This document shows, one piece after another, positions 4,088-64,000 of a DNA stretch of 64,000 bases (its first letter is position 1; every line of letters starts with the position of its first letter). The DNA comes from a virus. Lineage: Duplodnaviria; Caudoviricetes. A model generated the notes under the pieces. That model did no database searches. It worked only from the letters and a program-made list of their open reading frames with translations, and had not been told where the DNA came from. The DNA is taken from positions 1 through 64,000 of the IMG/VR virus record IMGVR_UViG_2928424016_000001; one strand, 5' to 3'. Both the position numbers and the translations under genes were made by a program.

Positions 4088-4437
4088 TGGCCCCGCCATT
4101 CAAATTCGACCCCGATTTTCTCGACACGTTGATCGATGCGATCAACATGCACCGTAGTGAACTGTCGGCGGAAAAAGGCAAGCGGTTGGTTTCCGCGCTT
4201 AAATCCCGCTTGAGCAAGGACCTTCTGGAGGAGCATGCGGAACGCTCTCTGATCGATGCCTATAGTGTCGCCCGCCGCCGGCTTTCCGTCGAGCAGGCAG
4301 ATGCTGCGATTGAGCGGGCAGAGCGCCGGATCACTCGTCTCAAGCTTTATCGCCGCCGTCTGGCGCTTTCGGCACAAGAGTTGGCCGAAATCTTTCGGTC
4401 TGCGCAGGCTCGTGCCGAGGAAGAGGGGCAGGAATGA
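4084..4437 (+). CDS. Hypothetical early protein (coiled-coil)
   Basis: Translationally coupled to ner; GGAGG upstream. Confidence 0.65.
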   Translation: MMAPPFKFDPDFLDTLIDAINMHRSELSAEKGKRLVSALKSRLSKDLLEEHAERSLIDAYSVARRRLSVEQADAAIERAERRITRLKLYRRRLALSAQELAEIFRSAQARAEEEGQE

Positions 4438-4756
4438 GCCCCGCCATGATCCGCAACATCCTTTGCCGGTCACCGGTTTCGTTTCTCTCTATCAACGCGT
4501 CGTCAATGCGCGGCAGCGCCTTGCGAAAGCCCTCGATTGAGAACCCGGGAAGAAGAACGTCGAGCGTTATCAGCAGATGCCTGATGATCCTCTCCTGTGC
4601 TGCCAGCATTTCCTTGATCGTCGGGTCCTCCACGTCCGGCAGTTCCTCGTCAGTGTGGCAGCCGGTCCAGTCCTCCATGTGGTGCATCTGGCGCTCAAGT
4701 TCGTTCAGTCTCAGCTCATTTAGGCGGCTCGCCTTCCTGCACCCTCGTCTGATCAT
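4340..4756 (-). CDS. Hypothetical protein, counter-oriented within the early operon
   Basis: GGAG SD upstream; fills the gap between + genes; 3' overlap with 4084-4437. Confidence 0.5.
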   Translation of the reverse strand: MIRRGCRKASRLNELRLNELERQMHHMEDWTGCHTDEELPDVEDPTIKEMLAAQERIIRHLLITLDVLLPGFSIEGFRKALPRIDDALIERNETGDRQRMLRIMAGLIPAPLPRHEPAQTERFRPTLVPKAPDGGDKA

Positions 4757-17887: not shown

Positions 17888-19440
17888 TGGCCCAGCTTCT
17901 CGACCAGTATGGCAACCCGATCCGCCCAACCCAGATGAAGCAGGAGCAGGCTGCGCCGACCGTGATCGGCGTGCGCCGCCCGGTCGGCAATCATCAGGCT
18001 CCGGGTCTTACCCCGCCCAAGCTTGCCCGCATCCTGCGCGAATCGCTCGACGGCGATCCGGAGCGCTATCTGGAACTGGCCGAGGATATGGAGGAGCGCA
18101 ACGAACACTATGCCGGTGTTCTCGGTGTCCGCAAACGCCAGGTCTCGGGGCTGGAGATTACGGTGGAGGCGGCAAGCGATGCCGCCGACGATGTCGCTGA
18201 CGCCGATCTCGTCCGCGAGGTTGTCGAGCGTGACGATCTCGAAGACGAGCTTTTCGACATTCTGGATGCGATCGGCAAGGGCTTTTCCGCCACGGAAATC
18301 CTCTGGGACACATCGGAAAGCCAGTGGACGGTCGATACTCTCAAATGGCGCGACCCGCGCTGGTTCGTCTTCGATCAGGCCGACAAGGAAACCATCCGGT
18401 TGCGCAGCCCGGCAGGCGAGGAGGATCTCTGGCCCGGCAAGTGGATCGTACACCGCGCCAAGATCAAGTCCGGCCTGACGATCCGGGGCGGGCTGGCGCG
18501 CTCTGCCGCCTGGGCCTATCTCTTCAAGGCCTTCACCGCGTCCGATTGGGGGATTTTCTGCGAGGCCTACGGTCAGCCCTTGCGGCTCGGCAAATATGGA
18601 GAAAATGCCTCCGAGGTTGACAAGGAGGTGCTGCTGCGCGCCGTCAGCAATATTGCCTCGGACTTTGCCGCCACCATTCCCGAAAGCATGGTGATCGAGT
18701 TCGTCCAGGCGACCATCACCGGCAGCATCGATCTTTATGAACGCCGCTCCGACTGGCTGGACCGGCAGATCTCCAAGCTGGTGCTGGGCCAGACGGCGAC
18801 CACCGATGCGCAGGCCGGCGGCTATGCGGTCGGCAAGGTGCATGACGGCGTGCGCGAAGATATCGAGCGCGCCGATGCCCGCCAGCTGGCCGCCACGCTG
18901 AACCGCGATCTCGTCATTCCGCTGGTCTCGCTCAATCGCGGCCGGCGCAAGAAATATCCGAAGATCCGCATCGGCCGACCTGACGATATCGACATCGACA
19001 GCCTGGTCGGCAATGTCGTCAAGCTGGTGCCGCTCGGGCTTAAGGTCGGCATGTCCACCATGCGCGACCGGATCGGCCTGCCGGACCCCGGCAAGGATGA
19101 GGAACTGCTGGCGCCTGCCGCAGCCCCGGAACCGCCGCCCGCCGATCAGGCAAAGGCAAAGCCGCCCGCCATCGCCACCCAGAGCCAGATGGGCTTTGCC
19201 GCTCATGACGCCATCGACCTGGCCGCCGCTAGCATCACTGCCGAGAACTGGCAGGAGATGACGCCGCCGGTGGTCGACGGGCTGAGCGAGGCCTTGAGCC
19301 AGGCGACGTCCATCGAAGACGTGCAGGCCATCCTGGCGCGGCAGGTCAGTACCATGGGCGTCAATGCCTTTGTCGAGCTTCTGGCGCGTGCGGCTTTTTC
19401 GGCGCGGATCGCAGGTGAAGCCGATGAGGCCTTGTCGTGA
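17887..19440 (+). CDS. Portal protein (DUF935 / Mu gp29-like)
   Basis: YGQPLRLGKY, ISKLVLGQT, GKVHDGVR motifs. Confidence 0.92.
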   Translation: MAQLLDQYGNPIRPTQMKQEQAAPTVIGVRRPVGNHQAPGLTPPKLARILRESLDGDPERYLELAEDMEERNEHYAGVLGVRKRQVSGLEITVEAASDAADDVADADLVREVVERDDLEDELFDILDAIGKGFSATEILWDTSESQWTVDTLKWRDPRWFVFDQADKETIRLRSPAGEEDLWPGKWIVHRAKIKSGLTIRGGLARSAAWAYLFKAFTASDWGIFCEAYGQPLRLGKYGENASEVDKEVLLRAVSNIASDFAATIPESMVIEFVQATITGSIDLYERRSDWLDRQISKLVLGQTATTDAQAGGYAVGKVHDGVREDIERADARQLAATLNRDLVIPLVSLNRGRRKKYPKIRIGRPDDIDIDSLVGNVVKLVPLGLKVGMSTMRDRIGLPDPGKDEELLAPAAAPEPPPADQAKAKPPAIATQSQMGFAAHDAIDLAAASITAENWQEMTPPVVDGLSEALSQATSIEDVQAILARQVSTMGVNAFVELLARAAFSARIAGEADEALS

Positions 19441-20732
19441 CGGCGACCATTCAGGCGATAAAGCCTGAAGACGCCATCAAGGCGCTGAAGGCGCGCGGTC
19501 AAACGCTGGCCCCGTCCTTTTCCTGGCAGGACGTCTATGCCGAGGAACACGCCCGGCAGTTCACGGTCGCCAAGTCTGCCGGTTTCGACATTCTGACCGA
19601 TCTGTTTGACGGCGTTCAAACGGTTCTGGATGAAGGGATTGCGGTCGAAAAGGCGATCAGGACGATTACGCCGATCCTGCAGGCCAAGGGCTGGTGGGGC
19701 GTGCAGCAGGTCACCGATCCGCTGACCGGCAAAACCGGTCCGGCGCAGCTTGGTTCGCCCCGCCGCCTGCAACTGATCTTCGATGCGAACCTCCGGGTGT
19801 CTTATGCTGCCGGTCATTGGGCCGCCTTCGAGCGCAACAAGGCGCGCCGTCCCTGGCTGCGCTATGTCTGCGTTCTCGACGGACGCACCCGGCCGGAGCA
19901 TCGCAAGCGGCACAATCTCTGCCTTCCGGTCGATCATCCCTATTGGGACACCTGGGCACCGCCTTGCGGCTGGAATTGCCGCTGCACCTTGCAGAGCTTG
20001 TCGGACCGCGATGTCGATCGCATGCGCGGGCAGTTGACCTTCACGCCGCCGGACGACGATCTGGTGACTTTCACCAACAAGCGCACCGGTGAGGTCCGGA
20101 TGATCCCGCGCGGCATCGATCCGGGCTGGGACCATAATCCCGGCAACGCCGGATACCGCGCTTTCGATGCGGCCGAGAAGCTGATCGATGCACCGCCGAT
20201 CCTGGCCGCGCAAGTAAACAAGGACCCGGACTGGCTGGTAAAGCCACTCGGCGATGATTTCGCCCGCTGGTTCGATGCGGCAATGGCCGGCGGCCGGGTC
20301 GACCGCTCCATCGTCGTCGTCGGGGCCTTGTCCGAGGAGGTTCTGGCCGCGCTCGCAAGGACGGGCATCGCGCCCGGGAGCGGGGCGATCACGCTCACCC
20401 AGCAGACGGCGCTGCATATGCTGCGCGATAGCAAGGCGAGCGCGGGCAGGGGCGTCGACGCCGCCGTGCTGCGACAGCTACCGGCCAATCTCAGCCGTCC
20501 GAGGGCGGTGCTGCGCGACAGACGCGACGGTGCGCTTCTTTATGTCTTCGACAGCGGACACGATCCGCGCCTGGCCAAGATCGTCGTGAAGGTCGATTTT
20601 GAGACCAAGGCCCGCCCGCCTGGCGGAAAGCCGCAGTCGATCAAAACCAATTCGATCCGCACGGCGGGTCTCGTCGATGCGGTGACGCTTGCCGATCCGT
20701 CTGCCTATGAGGTGTTGTCGGGGAAGATTTGA
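19437..20732 (+). CDS. MuF (gp30-like) minor head protein with a C-terminal PBECR2-like nuclease extension
   Basis: RTRPEH...PPCGWNCRC MuF motif; extra ~185-aa domain HMLRDSK...PRAVLRD...LLYVF...NSIRTAG. Confidence 0.85.
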   Translation: MTATIQAIKPEDAIKALKARGQTLAPSFSWQDVYAEEHARQFTVAKSAGFDILTDLFDGVQTVLDEGIAVEKAIRTITPILQAKGWWGVQQVTDPLTGKTGPAQLGSPRRLQLIFDANLRVSYAAGHWAAFERNKARRPWLRYVCVLDGRTRPEHRKRHNLCLPVDHPYWDTWAPPCGWNCRCTLQSLSDRDVDRMRGQLTFTPPDDDLVTFTNKRTGEVRMIPRGIDPGWDHNPGNAGYRAFDAAEKLIDAPPILAAQVNKDPDWLVKPLGDDFARWFDAAMAGGRVDRSIVVVGALSEEVLAALARTGIAPGSGAITLTQQTALHMLRDSKASAGRGVDAAVLRQLPANLSRPRAVLRDRRDGALLYVFDSGHDPRLAKIVVKVDFETKARPPGGKPQSIKTNSIRTAGLVDAVTLADPSAYEVLSGKI

Positions 20733-20835
20733 TGGCCACCGGGGGGTACGCCACCTTCCCCGTAACAGTGTCGCCGTTGCCAGGACGGGATCACTGAACC
20801 GGACCGGCGATTTCCCGGTTGTCGCGGCGGCCATC
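20731..20835 (+). ncRNA. Candidate cloverleaf ncRNA immediately downstream of MuF (prophage 1)
   Basis: Closing stem GATGGCC/GGCCATC plus three hairpins; core conserved and co-varying with 63149-63248. Confidence 0.6.
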
Positions 20836-21042
20836 TCCTCCATCATACGCCGATGAGGCGGGATTTCAACGGGGCGCACAGAAGGCCACAGACGCGCAGC
20901 AAGCGTTCGGATGGGCGACGACACCGGCAAGCCCCCAGAAACGCGCCCACGGAGTTTGAAGACGGTTTGAATTCGAAGCCTTGTCTCTCTCCCGCGTCGT
21001 GTTATGTCTTGAAGGACCGTCTCATTGCCACCGGGCCTTATC

Positions 21043-21087
21043 CGCAAACCCTTGTGGCTGTTTTTGCTTAAAGCGCCGGGGCACTCT
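21043..21087 (+). promoter_or_regulatory. Late promoter (head operon), prophage 1
   Basis: CGCAAACCCTTGTGGCTGTTTT-N17-CACTCT. Confidence 0.75.
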
Positions 21088-21093
21088 TGCCCC

Positions 21094-22176
21094 ATGACGA
21101 AAAACACCCAAACCCACCCTTCGAGCCTTATCGCCACCCATGCCGTCATGCTGGGCGGTGCCGATGCCGTTTCGCCGGAAGAGGGCAGCACCGGCCACTG
21201 GACCCTGCTGATGCCGCTCGGCTCATTTTCCGGCCGTGACGGTCGCGGTCCCTATTCGGTCAACGGCATGGACGGCATGCAGGCGGTGATCGCCGCGACC
21301 GCCCAGCGCGCCGGCACCACCGATCTCGTGGTCGATTACGATCACCAGACGCAGTTTTCCGCCGTGCCGGGTGTCGGCGGCCAGGCACCGGCCGCCGGCT
21401 GGATCAAGCAACTCGAAGCGCGGCCCGACGGTCTCTACGGCCGGATCGAGTGGACGGAAAAGGCCGTCCAGAGCATCCGCGCCGGGGAATATCGCTACAT
21501 CTCGCCCGCCTATCACCACGATCCGAGCGGCCGCGTGCTGCGGCTGATTTCGGCGGGGCTCACCAACGTGCCCAATCTCGACCTCGCGGCGGTTGCCGCC
21601 AGCGCCCAGCAAACCCGTGCTCAACAGAACCAGGAAAACGATATGAAGACGATTGCCGCCGCCTTGGGGCTTTCCGAGGACGCGGATGAGAGCGCCATTC
21701 TCACCGCGATCAACAGTGTCCTGACCGGCAATGCGGCCATTGCCGCTGCCGCCGGGCTTTCCGCCTCCGCCAAGCCGACCGAGATCGTCACGGCGATCCA
21801 GTCGGCCCGCAGCGAGGTTGACCCGACGCGCTTCGTGCCGATCGAGCAGGTCACGGCCCTCCAGAACGGTTTGAAGGCCCTTCAAACCAAGATTGAAGGC
21901 GAGGAGGCCGAAATCGCCGTCCACCGCGCCATCACCGAAGGCCGTCTGGCACCAGCGCTCAAAAACTGGGGCCTCGACCTTCACAAGAAGGACCCGGCCG
22001 CCTTCAAGGCCTTTGCCGACGCTTCTCCGGTTCTGACCGCCACGCAGCGCGCGGGCGTTGCCCCGCCCGGCACGGGCGCGGACACCGATCTGACGAGCGA
22101 AGATCTGGCGGTGATGAGCCAGATGGGTCTCAGCAAGGAAACCTTCCTCAAGGCCAAGAAAGGCGGTGACGCATGA
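21094..22176 (+). CDS. Mu gpI-like prohead protease with in-frame internal scaffold (gpZ-like, ATG 21643)
   Basis: VVDYDHQT, AAGWI, YRYISP, LTNVPNL motifs; AGGA-ATG internal start. Confidence 0.9.
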   Translation: MTKNTQTHPSSLIATHAVMLGGADAVSPEEGSTGHWTLLMPLGSFSGRDGRGPYSVNGMDGMQAVIAATAQRAGTTDLVVDYDHQTQFSAVPGVGGQAPAAGWIKQLEARPDGLYGRIEWTEKAVQSIRAGEYRYISPAYHHDPSGRVLRLISAGLTNVPNLDLAAVAASAQQTRAQQNQENDMKTIAAALGLSEDADESAILTAINSVLTGNAAIAAAAGLSASAKPTEIVTAIQSARSEVDPTRFVPIEQVTALQNGLKALQTKIEGEEAEIAVHRAITEGRLAPALKNWGLDLHKKDPAAFKAFADASPVLTATQRAGVAPPGTGADTDLTSEDLAVMSQMGLSKETFLKAKKGGDA

Positions 22177-60296: not shown

Positions 60297-61852
60297 TGGC
60301 CCAGGTTCTCGACCAGTACGGCAACCCGATCCGCCCGACCCAGATGAAGCAGGAGCAGGCCGCACCGACCGTGATCGGCGTGCGCCGCCCGGTCGGCAAT
60401 CATCAGGCTCCGGGTCTCACGCCGCCCAAGCTTGCCCGCATCCTGCGCGAATCGCTCGACGGCGATCCAGAGCGCTATCTGGAACTGGCCGAGGATATGG
60501 AGGAGCGCAACGAACATTATGCCGGTGTTCTCGGTGTCCGCAAACGGCAGGTCTCGGGGCTGGAGATCACGGTGGAGGCGGCAAGCGATGCCGCCGACGA
60601 TGTCGCTGCTGCTGATCTCGTGCGCGATGTGATTGACCGCGACGACCTTGAGGATGAGCTGTTCGATATTCTCGATGCTGTCGGCAAAGGGTTTTCAGCA
60701 ACTGAGATCATTTGGGACACGTCGGAGGGCCAGTGGACGGTCGACGCGCTGAAATGGCGTGATCCGCGCTGGTTCGTGTTCGACCGCAATGATGGCGAGA
60801 CACTGCGCCTTCGCGGTCCAGCGGGTGACGAGGATCTATGGCCGGCCAAATGGATCGTCCATCGCTCCAAGATCAAGTCCGGCCTGACGATCCGGGGCGG
60901 GCTGGCGCGCTCTGCCGCCTGGGCCTATTTGTTCAAGACGTTCACTGCGTCTGACTGGGCGATCTTTTGCGAGGCCTACGGTCAGCCGCTTCGGATCGGG
61001 AAATACGGCGAGAACGCGTCTGAAGAGGACAAAGCTATCCTGCTTCGCGCCGTCTCTTCGGTGGCCTCAGACTTTGCCGCCACGATCCCTGAGGGCATGC
61101 TGATCGAGTTCGTCCAGGCGTCAATCACTGGCAGCATCGACCTTTATGAGCGGCGCGCCGACTGGCTTGATCGCCAGATCTCCAAGCTTGTCTTGGGCCA
61201 GACCGGGACGACGGACGCGCAGGCGGGCGGCTATGCGGTCGGCAAGGTGCATGACGGTGTGCGCGAAGATATCGAGCGCGCCGATGCCCGTCAGCTTGCC
61301 GCCACGCTGAACCGCGATCTCATTATTCCGCTGGTCTCGCTCAACCTCGGGCCGCGCAAGAAATATCCGAAGATCCGTATCGGCCGTCCGGACGAGACCG
61401 ATATCAACAATCTGGTTTCGAACGTCGTCAAGTTGGTGCCGCTGGGCCTGAAGGTGGGCATGTCGACCATGCGCGACAAGCTCGGTCTACCCGATCCCGA
61501 CAAGGATGAGGAATTACTCATGCCCCGCGCCGCAGCGCGCGCGCAGCCATCTGACCAGCAAGACCAGCCATTACCGACAGCCATAGCCGCGCAAAGCCAA
61601 GCTGCTGCGGCCAATCATGATGCGATTGATCTTGCATCTGCCAGGATCACGGACGACAACTGGCAGGAAATGACCCCGCCCGTAGTCGATGGCCTGGCCG
61701 AAGCGTTGAGTGGGGCAGCCTCGGTCGAGGAAGCGCAGGCCATCATGGCGCGCCACGTCAGCGCCATGGGCGTCAATGCCTTCGTGCAGCAGCTCGCCCG
61801 CGCGGCGTTTGCGGCGAGGATCTCCGGAGAAGCTGACGAGGCCCTTTCATGA
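60296..61852 (+). CDS. Portal protein (DUF935)
   Basis: Homolog of 17887-19440. Confidence 0.92.
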   Translation: MAQVLDQYGNPIRPTQMKQEQAAPTVIGVRRPVGNHQAPGLTPPKLARILRESLDGDPERYLELAEDMEERNEHYAGVLGVRKRQVSGLEITVEAASDAADDVAAADLVRDVIDRDDLEDELFDILDAVGKGFSATEIIWDTSEGQWTVDALKWRDPRWFVFDRNDGETLRLRGPAGDEDLWPAKWIVHRSKIKSGLTIRGGLARSAAWAYLFKTFTASDWAIFCEAYGQPLRIGKYGENASEEDKAILLRAVSSVASDFAATIPEGMLIEFVQASITGSIDLYERRADWLDRQISKLVLGQTGTTDAQAGGYAVGKVHDGVREDIERADARQLAATLNRDLIIPLVSLNLGPRKKYPKIRIGRPDETDINNLVSNVVKLVPLGLKVGMSTMRDKLGLPDPDKDEELLMPRAAARAQPSDQQDQPLPTAIAAQSQAAAANHDAIDLASARITDDNWQEMTPPVVDGLAEALSGAASVEEAQAIMARHVSAMGVNAFVQQLARAAFAARISGEADEALS

Positions 61853-63144
61853 CCGCGACGATCGCGGCACTCAAACCTGAAGACGCGATCAAGGCGCTGA
61901 AAGCACGCGGTGAAACGCTGGCTCCATCCTTCTCATGGCAAGATGTCTACGCAGAGGAACATGCCCAGCAGCTCACGGTCGCAAAATCTGCTGGCTTCGA
62001 CATCCTCACGGATCTGTTCGACGGCCTTCAAACCAGCCTTGCAGAGGGAAAGACATTCCGGGACTTTGCCAGCCAGATCACGCCGATCCTGCAGGCCAAG
62101 GGCTGGTGGGGTGTACAGCAGGTCACTGATCCGCTGACCGGCGAGCGCCGTAAAGCGCAGCTCGGCTCGACCAGTCGCCTGCAACTGATCTTCAACGCCA
62201 ATATGCGTGTGTCCTATGCGGCAGGGCATTGGGCAGCCTTTGAGCGTAATAAGGCCCGCCGGCCCTGGCTGCGTTATGTGTGCATTCTTGATGACCGGAC
62301 CCGACCGGAGCATCGCAAGCGGCACAATCTCTGCCTTCCGGTCGATCATCCCTATTGGGACACCTGGGCACCGCCTTGCGGGTGGAATTGCCGCTGCACC
62401 TTGCAGAGCCTGTCGGATCGGGACGTCGAACGCATGCGGGGCGAGCTGAAGTTTACGCCGCCCGATGATGACTTCGTCGCCTTCACCAACAAGCGCACAG
62501 GTGAGATCCGGATGATCCCGCGCGGCATCGATCCAGGCTGGGATCATAATCCCGGCAAGGCGGGATACCGTGCCTTCGACGCGGCCGAGAAGCTGATCGC
62601 CGCGCCGCCTGTCATGGCCGCCCAGGTCAACAAAGATCCGGACTGGCTGATCAAGCCACTGGGCGACGACTTTGCCCGTTGGTTCGATGCGGCGACGGCC
62701 GGCGGGCGCGTCGATCGCTCGATCGTCGTCGTCGGTGCTTTGTCGGACGATGTCCTGTCGTCGCTTGCCAAAGGCGGGATCACGCCGCAGTCCGGTGCGA
62801 TCACCCTGACGCAGCAGGTAGCGCTGCACATGGTGCGTGACGCAAAAGCGGGCGCTGGCAAGGCGGTTGATATGGCCGCTCTGCGGCAGTTGCCCTTCAA
62901 TCTCAACCGGCCTCGGGCGGTGCTGCGCGACAGGCGCGATGGTGCGCTTCTTTATGTCTTCGATAGCGGCCAAGATCCGCGCCTGGCGAAGGTCGTGGTG
63001 AAAATCGATTTTGCTGACAAGGGCCGGCCACCTGGGGGAAAGGCGCAAACGATCGTCACCAATTCAATCCGGACGGCTGGTCTGGTCGAGACGCGCGTCC
63101 TGACCGACAAAAACACCTACGACCTGATGAGCGGAACGATTTAG
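61849..63144 (+). CDS. MuF minor head protein with a PBECR2-like C-terminal extension
   Basis: Homolog of 19437-20732, same length. Confidence 0.85.
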   Translation: MTATIAALKPEDAIKALKARGETLAPSFSWQDVYAEEHAQQLTVAKSAGFDILTDLFDGLQTSLAEGKTFRDFASQITPILQAKGWWGVQQVTDPLTGERRKAQLGSTSRLQLIFNANMRVSYAAGHWAAFERNKARRPWLRYVCILDDRTRPEHRKRHNLCLPVDHPYWDTWAPPCGWNCRCTLQSLSDRDVERMRGELKFTPPDDDFVAFTNKRTGEIRMIPRGIDPGWDHNPGKAGYRAFDAAEKLIAAPPVMAAQVNKDPDWLIKPLGDDFARWFDAATAGGRVDRSIVVVGALSDDVLSSLAKGGITPQSGAITLTQQVALHMVRDAKAGAGKAVDMAALRQLPFNLNRPRAVLRDRRDGALLYVFDSGQDPRLAKVVVKIDFADKGRPPGGKAQTIVTNSIRTAGLVETRVLTDKNTYDLMSGTI

Positions 63145-63148
63145 GAGA

Positions 63149-63248
63149 TGTGGCCATCAAGGGGGTACGCCACTCTCCCCGTAACAGTAGCCTGCGTTGC
63201 AGGGCACCAAACCGGACGTGCGATTTCCCGGTTGTCATGATGGCCACA
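63149..63248 (+). ncRNA. Candidate cloverleaf ncRNA downstream of MuF (prophage 2)
   Basis: Perfect 11-bp closing stem TGTGGCCATCA/TGATGGCCACA; conserved core. Confidence 0.6.
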
Positions 63249-63456
63249 AAGTCAAAATACGCGTCACGGGCATGGAATTCAAGGAGGCCCGATTTAAGCG
63301 CCACAGACGCGCGTGGAGCGCTCTTTCGGGCGGTGGCGCGCGCCGAACCCGAAAGAGCGCTCCACGGGCTTCAAACCGGCTTCAAAATCGAAGCCTTGCC
63401 TCATCCCTCGATCATGATATGAGTTTCCTGTCCGCTTCGGATCAGGTCGCGCTCAT

Positions 63457-63502
63457 CCGGTCACCCTACCGGCTGTTTTCAAATTGAGCGCCGGGGCAAT
63501 CT
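63457..63502 (+). promoter_or_regulatory. Late promoter (head operon), prophage 2
   Basis: CCGGTCACCCTACCGGCTGTTTT-N17-CAATCT. Confidence 0.75.
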
Positions 63503-63508
63503 CGCCCC

Positions 63509-64000
63509 ATGACGAAACGCACCCAAACACTCTTTCCCGGCCTTGTCGCCGCTCACTCCATGATGCTGTCCGACACAGCGTTGCCGGCTGATGGCGCGTC
63601 GGGTCGCTGGATCATGTTGTTGCCGATCGGATCGTTTTCCGGCCGGGATGGTCGCGGTCCTTATTCGGTCGACGGCATGGACGGCATGCAGGCGGTGATC
63701 GCCGCGACCGCGCAGCGCGCTGGCAGCGCCGACCTCGTGGTCGATTACGATCATCAGACGCAGTTTGCGGCCGTTCCGGGTGTCGGCGGGCAAGCGCCGG
63801 CAGCAGGCTGGATCAAGCAACTCCAAGCCCGTGCCGACGGTCTCTACGGCCTCGTCGAATGGACGGCAAAGGCTGCGCAGTCCATTCGCGCCGAGGAATA
63901 TCGCTACATCTCTCCGGTCTATCAGCACGATAAGAGCGGTCGGGTGCTGCGGCTGATTTCCGCCGGCCTTACCAACGTGCCCAATCTCGATCTTGCGGCC
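63509..64000 (+). CDS. Mu gpI-like protease (partial, runs off the window)
   Basis: LVVDYDHQT, AAGWI, YRYISP, LTNVPNL; homolog of 21094. Confidence 0.9.
   Translation, partial: MTKRTQTLFPGLVAAHSMMLSDTALPADGASGRWIMLLPIGSFSGRDGRGPYSVDGMDGMQAVIAATAQRAGSADLVVDYDHQTQFAAVPGVGGQAPAAGWIKQLQARADGLYGLVEWTAKAAQSIRAEEYRYISPVYQHDKSGRVLRLISAGLTNVPNLDLAA

Follow-up and report, generated by a model that had tools for sequence, protein, structure and literature searches.

A structured small RNA beside the Mu F gene as a candidate antidote to a predicted RNase domain

The window, a 64,000-nucleotide stretch of an IMG/VR virus record (IMGVR_UViG_2928424016_000001; Duplodnaviria, Caudoviricetes), carries two Mu-like prophages, each with a gene for MuF, a gp30-like head morphogenesis or pilot protein. 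The prophage 1 gene occupies 19437..20732 on the plus strand and encodes 431 residues; that of prophage 2, at 61849..63144 on the same strand, encodes a 431-residue protein of the same architecture, in which the His, Arg and Lys residues discussed below are retained. The prophage 1 protein belongs to the Pfam family Phage_Mu_F (PF04233), which it matches over residues 64-185 (E 2.8e-16) with 60.7 bits against a gathering cut-off of 29.6, and it aligns with coliphage Mu gp30 from residue 10 to 385 by BLASTP (E 8e-60) and from 10 to 387 by tblastn. The next late gene, a Mu I-type head protease/scaffold gene, lies at 21094..22176 on the plus strand (Pfam Mu-like_Pro, E 2.5e-94). A first-pass annotation of this DNA had drawn attention to a further C-terminal MuF domain of ~185 aa, and Phage_Mu_F is indeed confined to residues 64-185, with ~190 C-terminal residues outside it. 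Its description of this part as an extra domain has to be dropped, since it is an ancestral part of Mu F and can be aligned with coliphage Mu gp30 up to residue 385. It had also remarked that no immunity protein gene follows; in an alignment of the MuF–protease spacers of the two prophages, a 2-nt gap past the RNA element described below disrupts any common reading frame, and such a gene appears to be missing here.

The C-terminal part of MuF (~170-190 aa) comprises a predicted MuF-C/PBECR-like RNase domain at residues 262-431 of the prophage 1 protein (20220..20729, plus strand), recognised by conserved residues, AF2 modelling, VIA-align and HMMs. The AF2 model of the domain (pLDDT 92) has helices followed by five strands; the BECR fold is defined by an N-terminal helix and, after it, an antiparallel sheet of 4-5 strands. 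One helix bears His327 (codon 20415-20417), Arg330 and Lys333 in a His-x2-Arg-x2-Lys arrangement, whose three residues are invariant or almost so among 29-44 relatives; in a 29-sequence alignment of the C-terminal domain, His327 and Arg330 are invariant and Lys333 occurs in at least 90% of the sequences. Coliphage Mu gp30 has a residue other than histidine at the position aligned to His327. With the MuF_C HMM, the window MuF scored 12.8 bits, below the gathering cut-off of 27.6. Among the 29 relatives, 14 matched MuF_C (best E 2.9e-5), four PBECR3 and three PBECR2, with no E-value better than 2.9e-5 for any of these profiles. VIA-align ranked BrnT (Z 5.0) and the colicin D tRNase (4.3) best, along with CdiA-CT, RelE and HigB, all at low scores (Z 3.5-5.0). 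Foldseek against the PDB gave no match at E 0.001 or better for the whole MuF or the domain alone, and a PDB sequence-profile search with MuF returned just a fragment of colicin E5, at chance level and aligned to the wrong region of the protein. The C-terminus of Mu gp30 has been placed in the MuF-C/PBECR clade of BECR-fold predicted RNases (Iyer, Burroughs, Anand, de Souza and Aravind 2017, PMC5512222; PF18819, PF18809-PF18814). Because the domain is homologous to Mu gp30, matches MuF_C, PBECR3 and PBECR2 below threshold and has BECR toxins leading its fold search, at low Z, its membership of this clade is supported by these comparisons, and RNase activity is predicted for it. The PBECR-type likeness that the first-pass annotation had recognised by eye holds up on the same grounds, the profile and structure searches it had suggested yielding matches below the gathering score in the first case and none by Foldseek in the second.

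Touching the MuF stop codon, at 20731..20835, lies the multi-stem element of ~105 nt that had been described there; we call its family class A and place it on the minus strand, for reasons given below. The same fold follows the prophage 2 MuF at 63149..63248 (minus strand; spacer alignment and CM matches), with compensatory changes in the closing stem and diverged flanking DNA, again as noted at first pass. These are the only two copies in the genome, one per prophage. The RNA forms a four-way junction, with a closing stem, P1, that is a continuous 11-bp helix on the minus strand, a hairpin P2 with an 11-nt loop, a variable hairpin P3 and a hairpin P4 with a 12-nt loop. Across 53 distinct class A sequences, 91.4% of cells are paired, against 39-47% (~42%) when the partners are slid; the covariation score is 0.54, against 0.10 or less for slid partners, and both sides vary in 20 of the 25 pairs. 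The first hairpin had been drawn with 7 bp and a 5-nt loop. The hairpin exists, but covariation backs just four of its pairs, GGGG/CCCC, and the fifth pair, a G.U, is necessarily open on the minus strand, giving the loop its 11 nt. A kiss between the loops CGCC and GGCG, also suggested earlier, is partly borne out: three pairs are invariant and the fourth covaries in part, clean covariation being found only in the equivalent kiss of a sister family. Loop and junction sequences are almost invariant from Alphaproteobacteria to Desulfovibrionaceae while the stems drift. Single-sequence folding energy is unremarkable on either strand (z -1.5 to -2.2) and equal between the two. On comparative rather than thermodynamic grounds, the RNA element is real. 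Indels that are not multiples of three and covarying stems led us to reject it as coding sequence, and the two genome copies, together with its rarity across the order, as a dispersed repeat of the RIME or REP type.

The sister family, class C, accompanies a second type of MuF domain, the C-type, and shares the architecture of class A. In this family, 97.3% of cells are paired versus 30-60% with partners slid, and all cells of the loop-loop helix pair (100%), covariation appearing at two positions. The cultured Ochrobactrum phage POA1180 bears a compact relative of the class C RNA. Rfam 15, which includes skipping-rope, hammerhead, twister-sister and hatchet, has no gathering-score match in the window; with cmscan at E up to 10, no family matched the element and only chance-level matches fell elsewhere in 20650-21150. 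A known Rfam family or ribozyme was rejected for want of a match, as was a tRNA or tRNA-like gene, ARAGORN finding 0 genes in the window. A blastn search of the RNA against cultured phages gave no match, and neither the papers searched nor PMC5512222 describes an RNA partner for MuF or PBECR. By these comparisons the element appears to be a previously undescribed small RNA gene, and classes A and C are two new RNA families with covariation support.

The strand of the RNA was judged from promoters and from wobble pairs. A promoter scan found one sigma-70-like site, against 0.1 expected, for the prophage 1 RNA (TTGAAA-16-TATGAT, 20842..20869, minus strand), with a predicted start at ~20835, the first base of P1. 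In prophage 2, a promoter-like site (TTGAAT-17-TATTTT, 63254..63282, minus strand) was read by eye with 8/12 matches, under the scan threshold. The two sites are placed alike relative to P1, ending 4-7 nt ahead of the closing stem, and a minus-strand -35/-10 pair ending 2-14 nt (peak 4-6) before P1 was found at 32 of 52 class A and 12 of 16 class C loci, compared with 0-2 sites in control windows. Read as the plus strand, the core helices hold 34 A.C oppositions and 13 G.U pairs, and an A/C mismatch in the closing stem of the window's element reads as G.U when the minus strand is taken; at one column pair, 34 sequences have a plus-strand G.U, which opposes the minus-strand reading. No clear intrinsic terminator was found after the minus-strand RNA. 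Because of the promoter position and the balance of G.U against A.C, the element is most likely a separate minus-strand small-RNA gene convergent with MuF, rather than the 3' terminus of the MuF transcript, which had been the first supposition. A plus-strand cis element of that transcript, such as a 3'-UTR stabiliser, terminator, processing site or co-translational binding site, would suit the contact with the stop codon, the opposing G.U column and the equal folding energies. We consider it highly improbable in view of the position-locked minus-strand promoter in most loci, the excess of A.C in plus-strand helices, the closing-stem mismatch and the absence of a U-tract after the element on the plus strand.

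A convergent gene also brings to mind a cis-antisense regulator, type I-like or similar to lambda OOP, which, by pairing with the MuF/late mRNA at its complementary 3' end or by colliding with late transcription, would curb leaky RNase expression, its fold serving mainly stability. The predicted minus-strand transcript reaches into the MuF stop codon, and the RNA would be required just where the domain appears active, both in keeping with such a role. Pure antisense would leave intramolecular helices unconstrained, yet four helices and the class C kiss covary; moreover, loops and junctions stay nearly invariant over the phylogenetic range given above, and the known overlap of the RNA with coding sequence is a few codons at most. 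We therefore hold antisense control to be unlikely.

To relate the RNAs to the domains, we counted co-occurrence in 136 distinct MuF relatives. The class A RNA stands beside 53 of the 62 A-type domains with the histidine, and the class C RNA beside 16 of 20 such C-type domains. Neither RNA accompanies a His-less domain (0/5 A-type and 0/5 C-type, from several lineages), a short MuF (0/42) or an ART-toxin MuF (0/2). Cross-class pairs of domain and RNA do not occur in this set, nor does either RNA apart from a His-bearing domain. All CM matches begin -11 to +31 nt from the MuF stop and lie on the same DNA strand, so that the linkage proposed at first pass, tested with covariance models, is sustained: matches sit solely beside this domain, at a constant spacing from the stop, and never by MuFs without the domain or its histidine. 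A search of 150 genomes of the order gave an RNA match in just one besides the genome itself; on that contig, a translated MuF-C domain tail precedes the RNA, where tblastn with the window MuF gives no match. Nine His-bearing A-type domains lack a strong match. With filters off, weak matches appeared right after the stop at five of them (L043, L063, L069, L157 and L166); of the other four, L072 had no match on the same strand, and three lay outside the filter-off search. The RNA is present in a single copy per locus, except for two tandem copies at L070 and L076 (Desulfovibrionaceae). On a tree of the N-terminal module, nine well-supported independent contrasts were available, with the RNA concordant in ~6 and opposite in ~0.3 (median sign-test p 0.03). 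In coliphage Mu, the histidine is missing and gene G follows immediately after F. Physical adjacency alone could yield much of the co-inheritance of RNA and domain.

Adjacency and shared descent are also what would tie the two together if the RNA were an unrelated accessory gene, a moron with, for example, an anti-defence or regulatory function in a hot spot between F/G and I. The corresponding interval in Pseudomonas Mu-like phages holds accessory anti-CRISPR genes, which counts towards this explanation, as does a spacer that is present whether or not the RNA is there. Also in its favour, the equivalent G-I spacer of coliphage Mu contains the strong gyrase site, which is central in the genome, strongly cleaved by DNA gyrase and required in replication; a gyrase site would not be expected to show helix covariation. 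An unrelated gene is at odds with two domain types that each have their own RNA type and no cross pairs, and with at least ten distinct His-less domains from several lineages, all devoid of an RNA that never occurs without a His-bearing domain. We judge it very unlikely.

The position after the MuF stop is not always filled by an RNA. Two loci retain the histidine and have no RNA directly behind the stop: in L028 the stop is overlapped by a small ORF, and in L022 a small ORF lies 25 nt further on, with a weak CM match just past it. ART-type MuFs are followed by a translationally coupled ORF of 67-71 aa. These small and coupled ORFs lead us to view the position as behaving like an immunity slot. 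At L104 it is taken by a gene on the opposite strand, and in Ralstonia phage YO088_1, which keeps His/Arg/Lys, gene G lies directly after F and no RNA was found within ~870 nt. The same ORFs bear on whether the RNA might instead be a substrate, cofactor or cargo of the RNase domain, being processed by it, acting as a folding scaffold, or being packaged with MuF and delivered to the next host. Co-occurrence and class-specific pairing would fit such a part equally well, joint loss of the histidine and the RNA would be equally expected, RNA binding has been suggested for MuF-C (Iyer et al. 2017, PMC5512222), and tandem copies occur at the two Desulfovibrionaceae loci. The ORFs at L022 and L028 and after the ART-type MuFs are simpler to understand under immunity, the L022 case being tempered by its weak CM match, and the variable hairpin speaks against a conserved mimic of a cleavage site; a substrate, cofactor or cargo thus appears distinctly improbable.

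Since the RNA is found only where the domain keeps its catalytic histidine, we propose that it is probably a dedicated partner of the RNase-like domain, with antidote as its most likely role. MuF would end in a PBECR-type, BECR-fold, metal-independent RNase domain with an intact, catalytic-looking His/Arg/Lys helix, and since MuF is a virion protein, the domain would presumably be taken into the particle and delivered along with the DNA. From its own sigma-70-type promoter on the opposite strand, independently of late transcription, the ~105-nt RNA would be made and would fold into the four-way junction with its two conserved loops kissing. Bound to the RNase domain, the RNA would keep it inactive both in the lysogen and in cells producing virus. 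The RNA may thereby stand in for the immunity protein usual after MuF-borne toxin domains, and domain, RNA and promoter may be exchanged between phages as a single cassette. We put the probability of this reading as a whole, an RNase domain neutralised by an adjacent convergent small RNA, at roughly 0.45; the structure and position of the RNA, its promoter-like site and its restriction to His-bearing domains are observed, and RNase activity, transcription and strand of the RNA, direct binding and neutralisation are inferred.

MuF polymorphic toxins of temperate phages, reportedly described by Jamet and colleagues in 2017, resemble the present proteins in joining a MuF N-terminal module to a swappable C-terminal effector, which among the relatives studied here is an A-type RNase, a C-type RNase, an ART or none. 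They would also share an immunity determinant immediately downstream, although this is a protein ORF in those toxins and would be an RNA gene here. Like the MuF-C/PBECR clade (PMC5512222), our domain forms the C-terminus of a Mu F orthologue, is homologous to the Mu gp30 C-terminus and, in its predicted structure, has a helix bearing a conserved His followed by an antiparallel sheet; unlike the MuF-C of coliphage Mu, which is predicted to be inactive, it has the His/Arg/Lys set, and it comes with a putative partner RNA, none being described in that paper or the others searched. Type III toxin-antitoxin systems (ToxIN, CptIN, TenpIN) likewise combine a predicted endoRNase with an adjacent, dedicated, structured and pseudoknot-like RNA on mobile elements, and direct neutralisation of protein by RNA, as in those systems, is what we propose. 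They differ in their Kid/MazF-like ToxN, as opposed to a predicted BECR fold, in tandem RNA repeats that the toxin processes, as opposed to a single 100-nt unit, and in an RNA that lies upstream on the same transcript, separated by a terminator, where ours is downstream, most likely convergent and served by its own promoter; moreover, the RNase here forms part of a structural protein of the virion. The small hydrophobic toxin peptides of type I systems, whose mRNAs pair with an antisense RNA, contrast with the putative toxin here, 170 aa of a 431-aa protein that form a soluble-looking domain; our RNA may overlap the 3' end of the MuF mRNA. Skipping-rope (Weinberg et al. 2017; RF02924) is similarly a structured RNA in a phage context, as an orphan motif; it has no sequence or structure match to our RNA, whose four-way junction has loops that would kiss.

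Domains of the MuF-C/PBECR type occur widely in phages and lack immunity proteins, and their prediction as RNases dates from 2017. If our reading is true, the dedicated RNA would account for the ability of a phage to incorporate a ribonuclease into its capsid and yet not poison late protein synthesis. The reading would also mean a new RNA-antitoxin architecture, in which one folded RNA runs convergent to the toxin gene under its own promoter, and RNA immunity for effectors injected by phages. More generally, and with somewhat less than an even chance of being right, we suggest that virion-borne PBECR RNases are held in check by separately transcribed structured RNAs, in at least two and probably more kissing-loop four-way-junction families that are matched to domain subtype and exchanged as cassettes. 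Two new RNA families would thereby be given a concrete, testable function.

Two related Mu-like prophages lie within the window, spaced about 42.4 kb apart, and each has the gene order terminase, Mu-type portal, MuF, a ~360-nt spacer, Mu I-type protease and gpT capsid. MuF occupies 19437-20732 in prophage 1 (431 aa) and 61849-63144 in prophage 2. The spacer between genes F and I keeps a GC hairpin (GGGGCA...GCCCC) adjoining the protease ATG in both prophages (21078-21096 and 63493-63511), which could be a translational control element, and the rest of it contains short blocks common to both (20880-21060 and 63290-63475); in coliphage Mu, a strong gyrase site sits in the equivalent spacer.

The first-pass annotation treated the C-terminal domain of MuF as an extra, PBECR2-like add-on. 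The Pfam family Phage_Mu_F matches the prophage 1 protein at aa 64-185 only. The add-on claim is not borne out, as coliphage Mu gp30 aligns with residues 10-385 (E 8e-60); matches in many Mu-like phages extend across more than 85% of the protein. Iyer et al. 2017 (PMC5512222) took the C-terminal part of Mu gp30 as the defining MuF-C domain, within the PBECR clade of predicted BECR-fold RNases, and predicted Mu's own copy to be inactive and its orthologues active; the PBECR domain is already published. Direct HMM support is weak: the window protein scores 12.8 bits against MuF_C, which is matched by 14 of 29 relatives (best E 2.9e-5), with matches to PBECR3 or PBECR2 in a few. For aa 262-431, AlphaFold gives a confident model (pLDDT 92), and BECR toxins top an exhaustive structural comparison, with BrnT (Z 5.0) and colicin D tRNase (4.3) followed by CdiA-CT toxins, RelE and HigB, all at low Z. 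Foldseek searches with MuF or its C-terminal domain returned no match. We regard the modelled fold as consistent with BECR, short of proof. Helix residues His327, Arg330 and Lys333 are invariant or nearly so across 29-44 MuF relatives; Mu lacks a histidine at the position matching His327.

Directly 3' of the MuF stop is an element of ~105 nt (class A RNA; 20731-20835 and 63149-63248). As first proposed, the same fold follows both MuFs, with compensatory changes in the closing stem amid diverged flanks. When the two copies were used to build a covariance model, it matched 25 of 80 related genomic loci; a refined version matched 27 of these 80 (E up to 0.05) and, among 80 viral contigs, 31. Every match lay at the MuF stop, which upholds the linkage that the first-pass annotation had put forward for checking. 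A second, tandem copy occurs in two of the 27 genomic loci. In L070 and L076 (Desulfovibrionaceae/Mailhella), the tandem pair lies at 4279-4382 and 4393-4496, the copy nearer the stop being the divergent one, reminiscent of antitoxin repeat arrays. The fold is a four-way junction comprising P1 (10 bp), P2 (4 bp, invariant 11-nt loop), a variable P3 and P4 (6 bp, 12-nt loop). Across 53 distinct sequences, the main helices (three) together with the loop contact have 91.4% of their cells paired, versus 39-47% for slid partners, and 20 of 25 pairs show changes on both sides. In relatives with a MuF of about 403-405 aa, the C-terminal domain is of another type (C-type), weakly related to the A-type (hhalign E 8e-4, His aligned), and a separate RNA, class C, occupies the same position with the same architecture. 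The proposed class A loop-loop kiss comprises three invariant pairs; in class C the corresponding helix between the loops is paired in 100% of cases and shows compensatory changes at two positions, evidence for the kiss in class A and class C alike. The element is not accounted for by any Rfam family, tRNA or dispersed repeat; both RNAs are absent from Rfam 15, and neither the families nor their pairing with His-bearing MuF-C domains was found in the literature searched.

The RNA is most likely transcribed from the minus strand. In prophage 1, a sigma-70-like site (TTGAAA-16-TATGAT, 20869-20842, minus strand; one site versus 0.1 expected) predicts that transcription begins with P1's first base, and prophage 2 has a promoter-like minus-strand site (TTGAAT-17-TATTTT) in the same register. 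Among distinct loci, 32 of 52 with class A RNA and 12 of 16 with class C RNA have a -35/-10 pair whose end lies 2-14 nt ahead of P1, versus 0-2 in control windows. Core helices contain plus-strand A.C, equivalent to minus-strand G.U, over G.U by 34 to 13, and the closing-stem A/C mismatch noted at first corresponds to a G.U pair on the minus strand. One column is G.U on the plus strand and no clear terminator of a minus-strand RNA was found, leaving the assignment short of certain; a plus-strand cis element, which that column would fit, appears very improbable. Antisense control of the MuF mRNA by a minus-strand transcript is a rather unlikely alternative.

Among 136 distinct MuF proteins, class A RNA follows 53 of 62 with a His-bearing A-type domain, and class C RNA follows 16 of 20 with a His-bearing C-type domain; no cross-class pair was seen. 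The RNA follows none of the His-less A-type (five) or C-type (five) proteins, the 42 short MuFs without a C-terminal domain or the two ART-toxin MuFs. A tree of 245 N-terminal MuF residues requires a minimum of 16 changes for one trait and 21 for the other, and in nine well-supported independent contrasts the RNA goes with the active-looking domain (about six the same way, 0.3 opposite, median p 0.03). An accessory RNA sharing only linkage with the domain is improbable in our estimation. A role as substrate, cofactor or cargo of the predicted RNase domain would also pair RNA with domain, and we judge it unlikely.

A search for weak matches covered six of the nine His-bearing A-type proteins lacking a strong match; it placed one at the expected spot in five (L043, L063, L069, L157, L166) and none on that strand in L072. 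A small ORF overlaps the MuF stop in L028; in L022 one lies 25 nt past it, with a weak RNA match just beyond. L104, an exception, has an opposite-strand insert; in another, Ralstonia phage YO088_1, the motif is kept, gene G follows F and the RNA was not detected within about 870 nt. In L091 (G055:C325), a MAG contig, three CRISPR-like repeats at 61-nt spacing abut the end of a truncated MuF-C coding sequence, after which comes a class A RNA (1154-1308, 1310-1596); this could be a chimeric assembly via a phage-matching spacer or a prophage remnant next to an array.

A lineage with a 414-aa His-bearing MuF (L166, 3248-3365; L171) is followed by another folded element with a T-arm-like hairpin, in which ARAGORN found no tRNA; farther downstream are sub-threshold matches to sRNA-Xcc1 (RF02221; 4000-4094 in L166 and 3066-3159 in L171; 46.7 and 37.4 bits versus a gathering score of 53). 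A third His-bearing C-terminal domain type (~430 aa; L078, L087, L089, L158) precedes ~45 conserved nt past the MuF stop, possibly an additional class of RNA, judged from few distinct sequences. Behind ART-type MuFs lies a coupled ORF of 67-71 aa; in L051 (4359-4574) and L052 (4373-4576), this conserved ORF overlaps the stop of ADPrib_exo_Tox MuFs (E 1.3e-11), has no Pfam family and is likely an immunity protein. In the cultured Ochrobactrum phage POA1180, a possible experimental model, a compact 66-nt class C relative (2079-2144) lies directly 3' of a 402-aa MuF, and visual inspection of its minus strand shows a -35/-10 pair that stops 7 nt ahead of the closing stem, the same promoter geometry.

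The most likely reading, to which we give a probability of roughly 0.45, is that the small RNA would bind and neutralise the predicted RNase domain. In this phage group, the C-terminal slot of MuF resembles one for polymorphic effectors and the position after it resembles an immunity slot, which for predicted RNase-type effectors appears to be occupied by a structured small-RNA gene.
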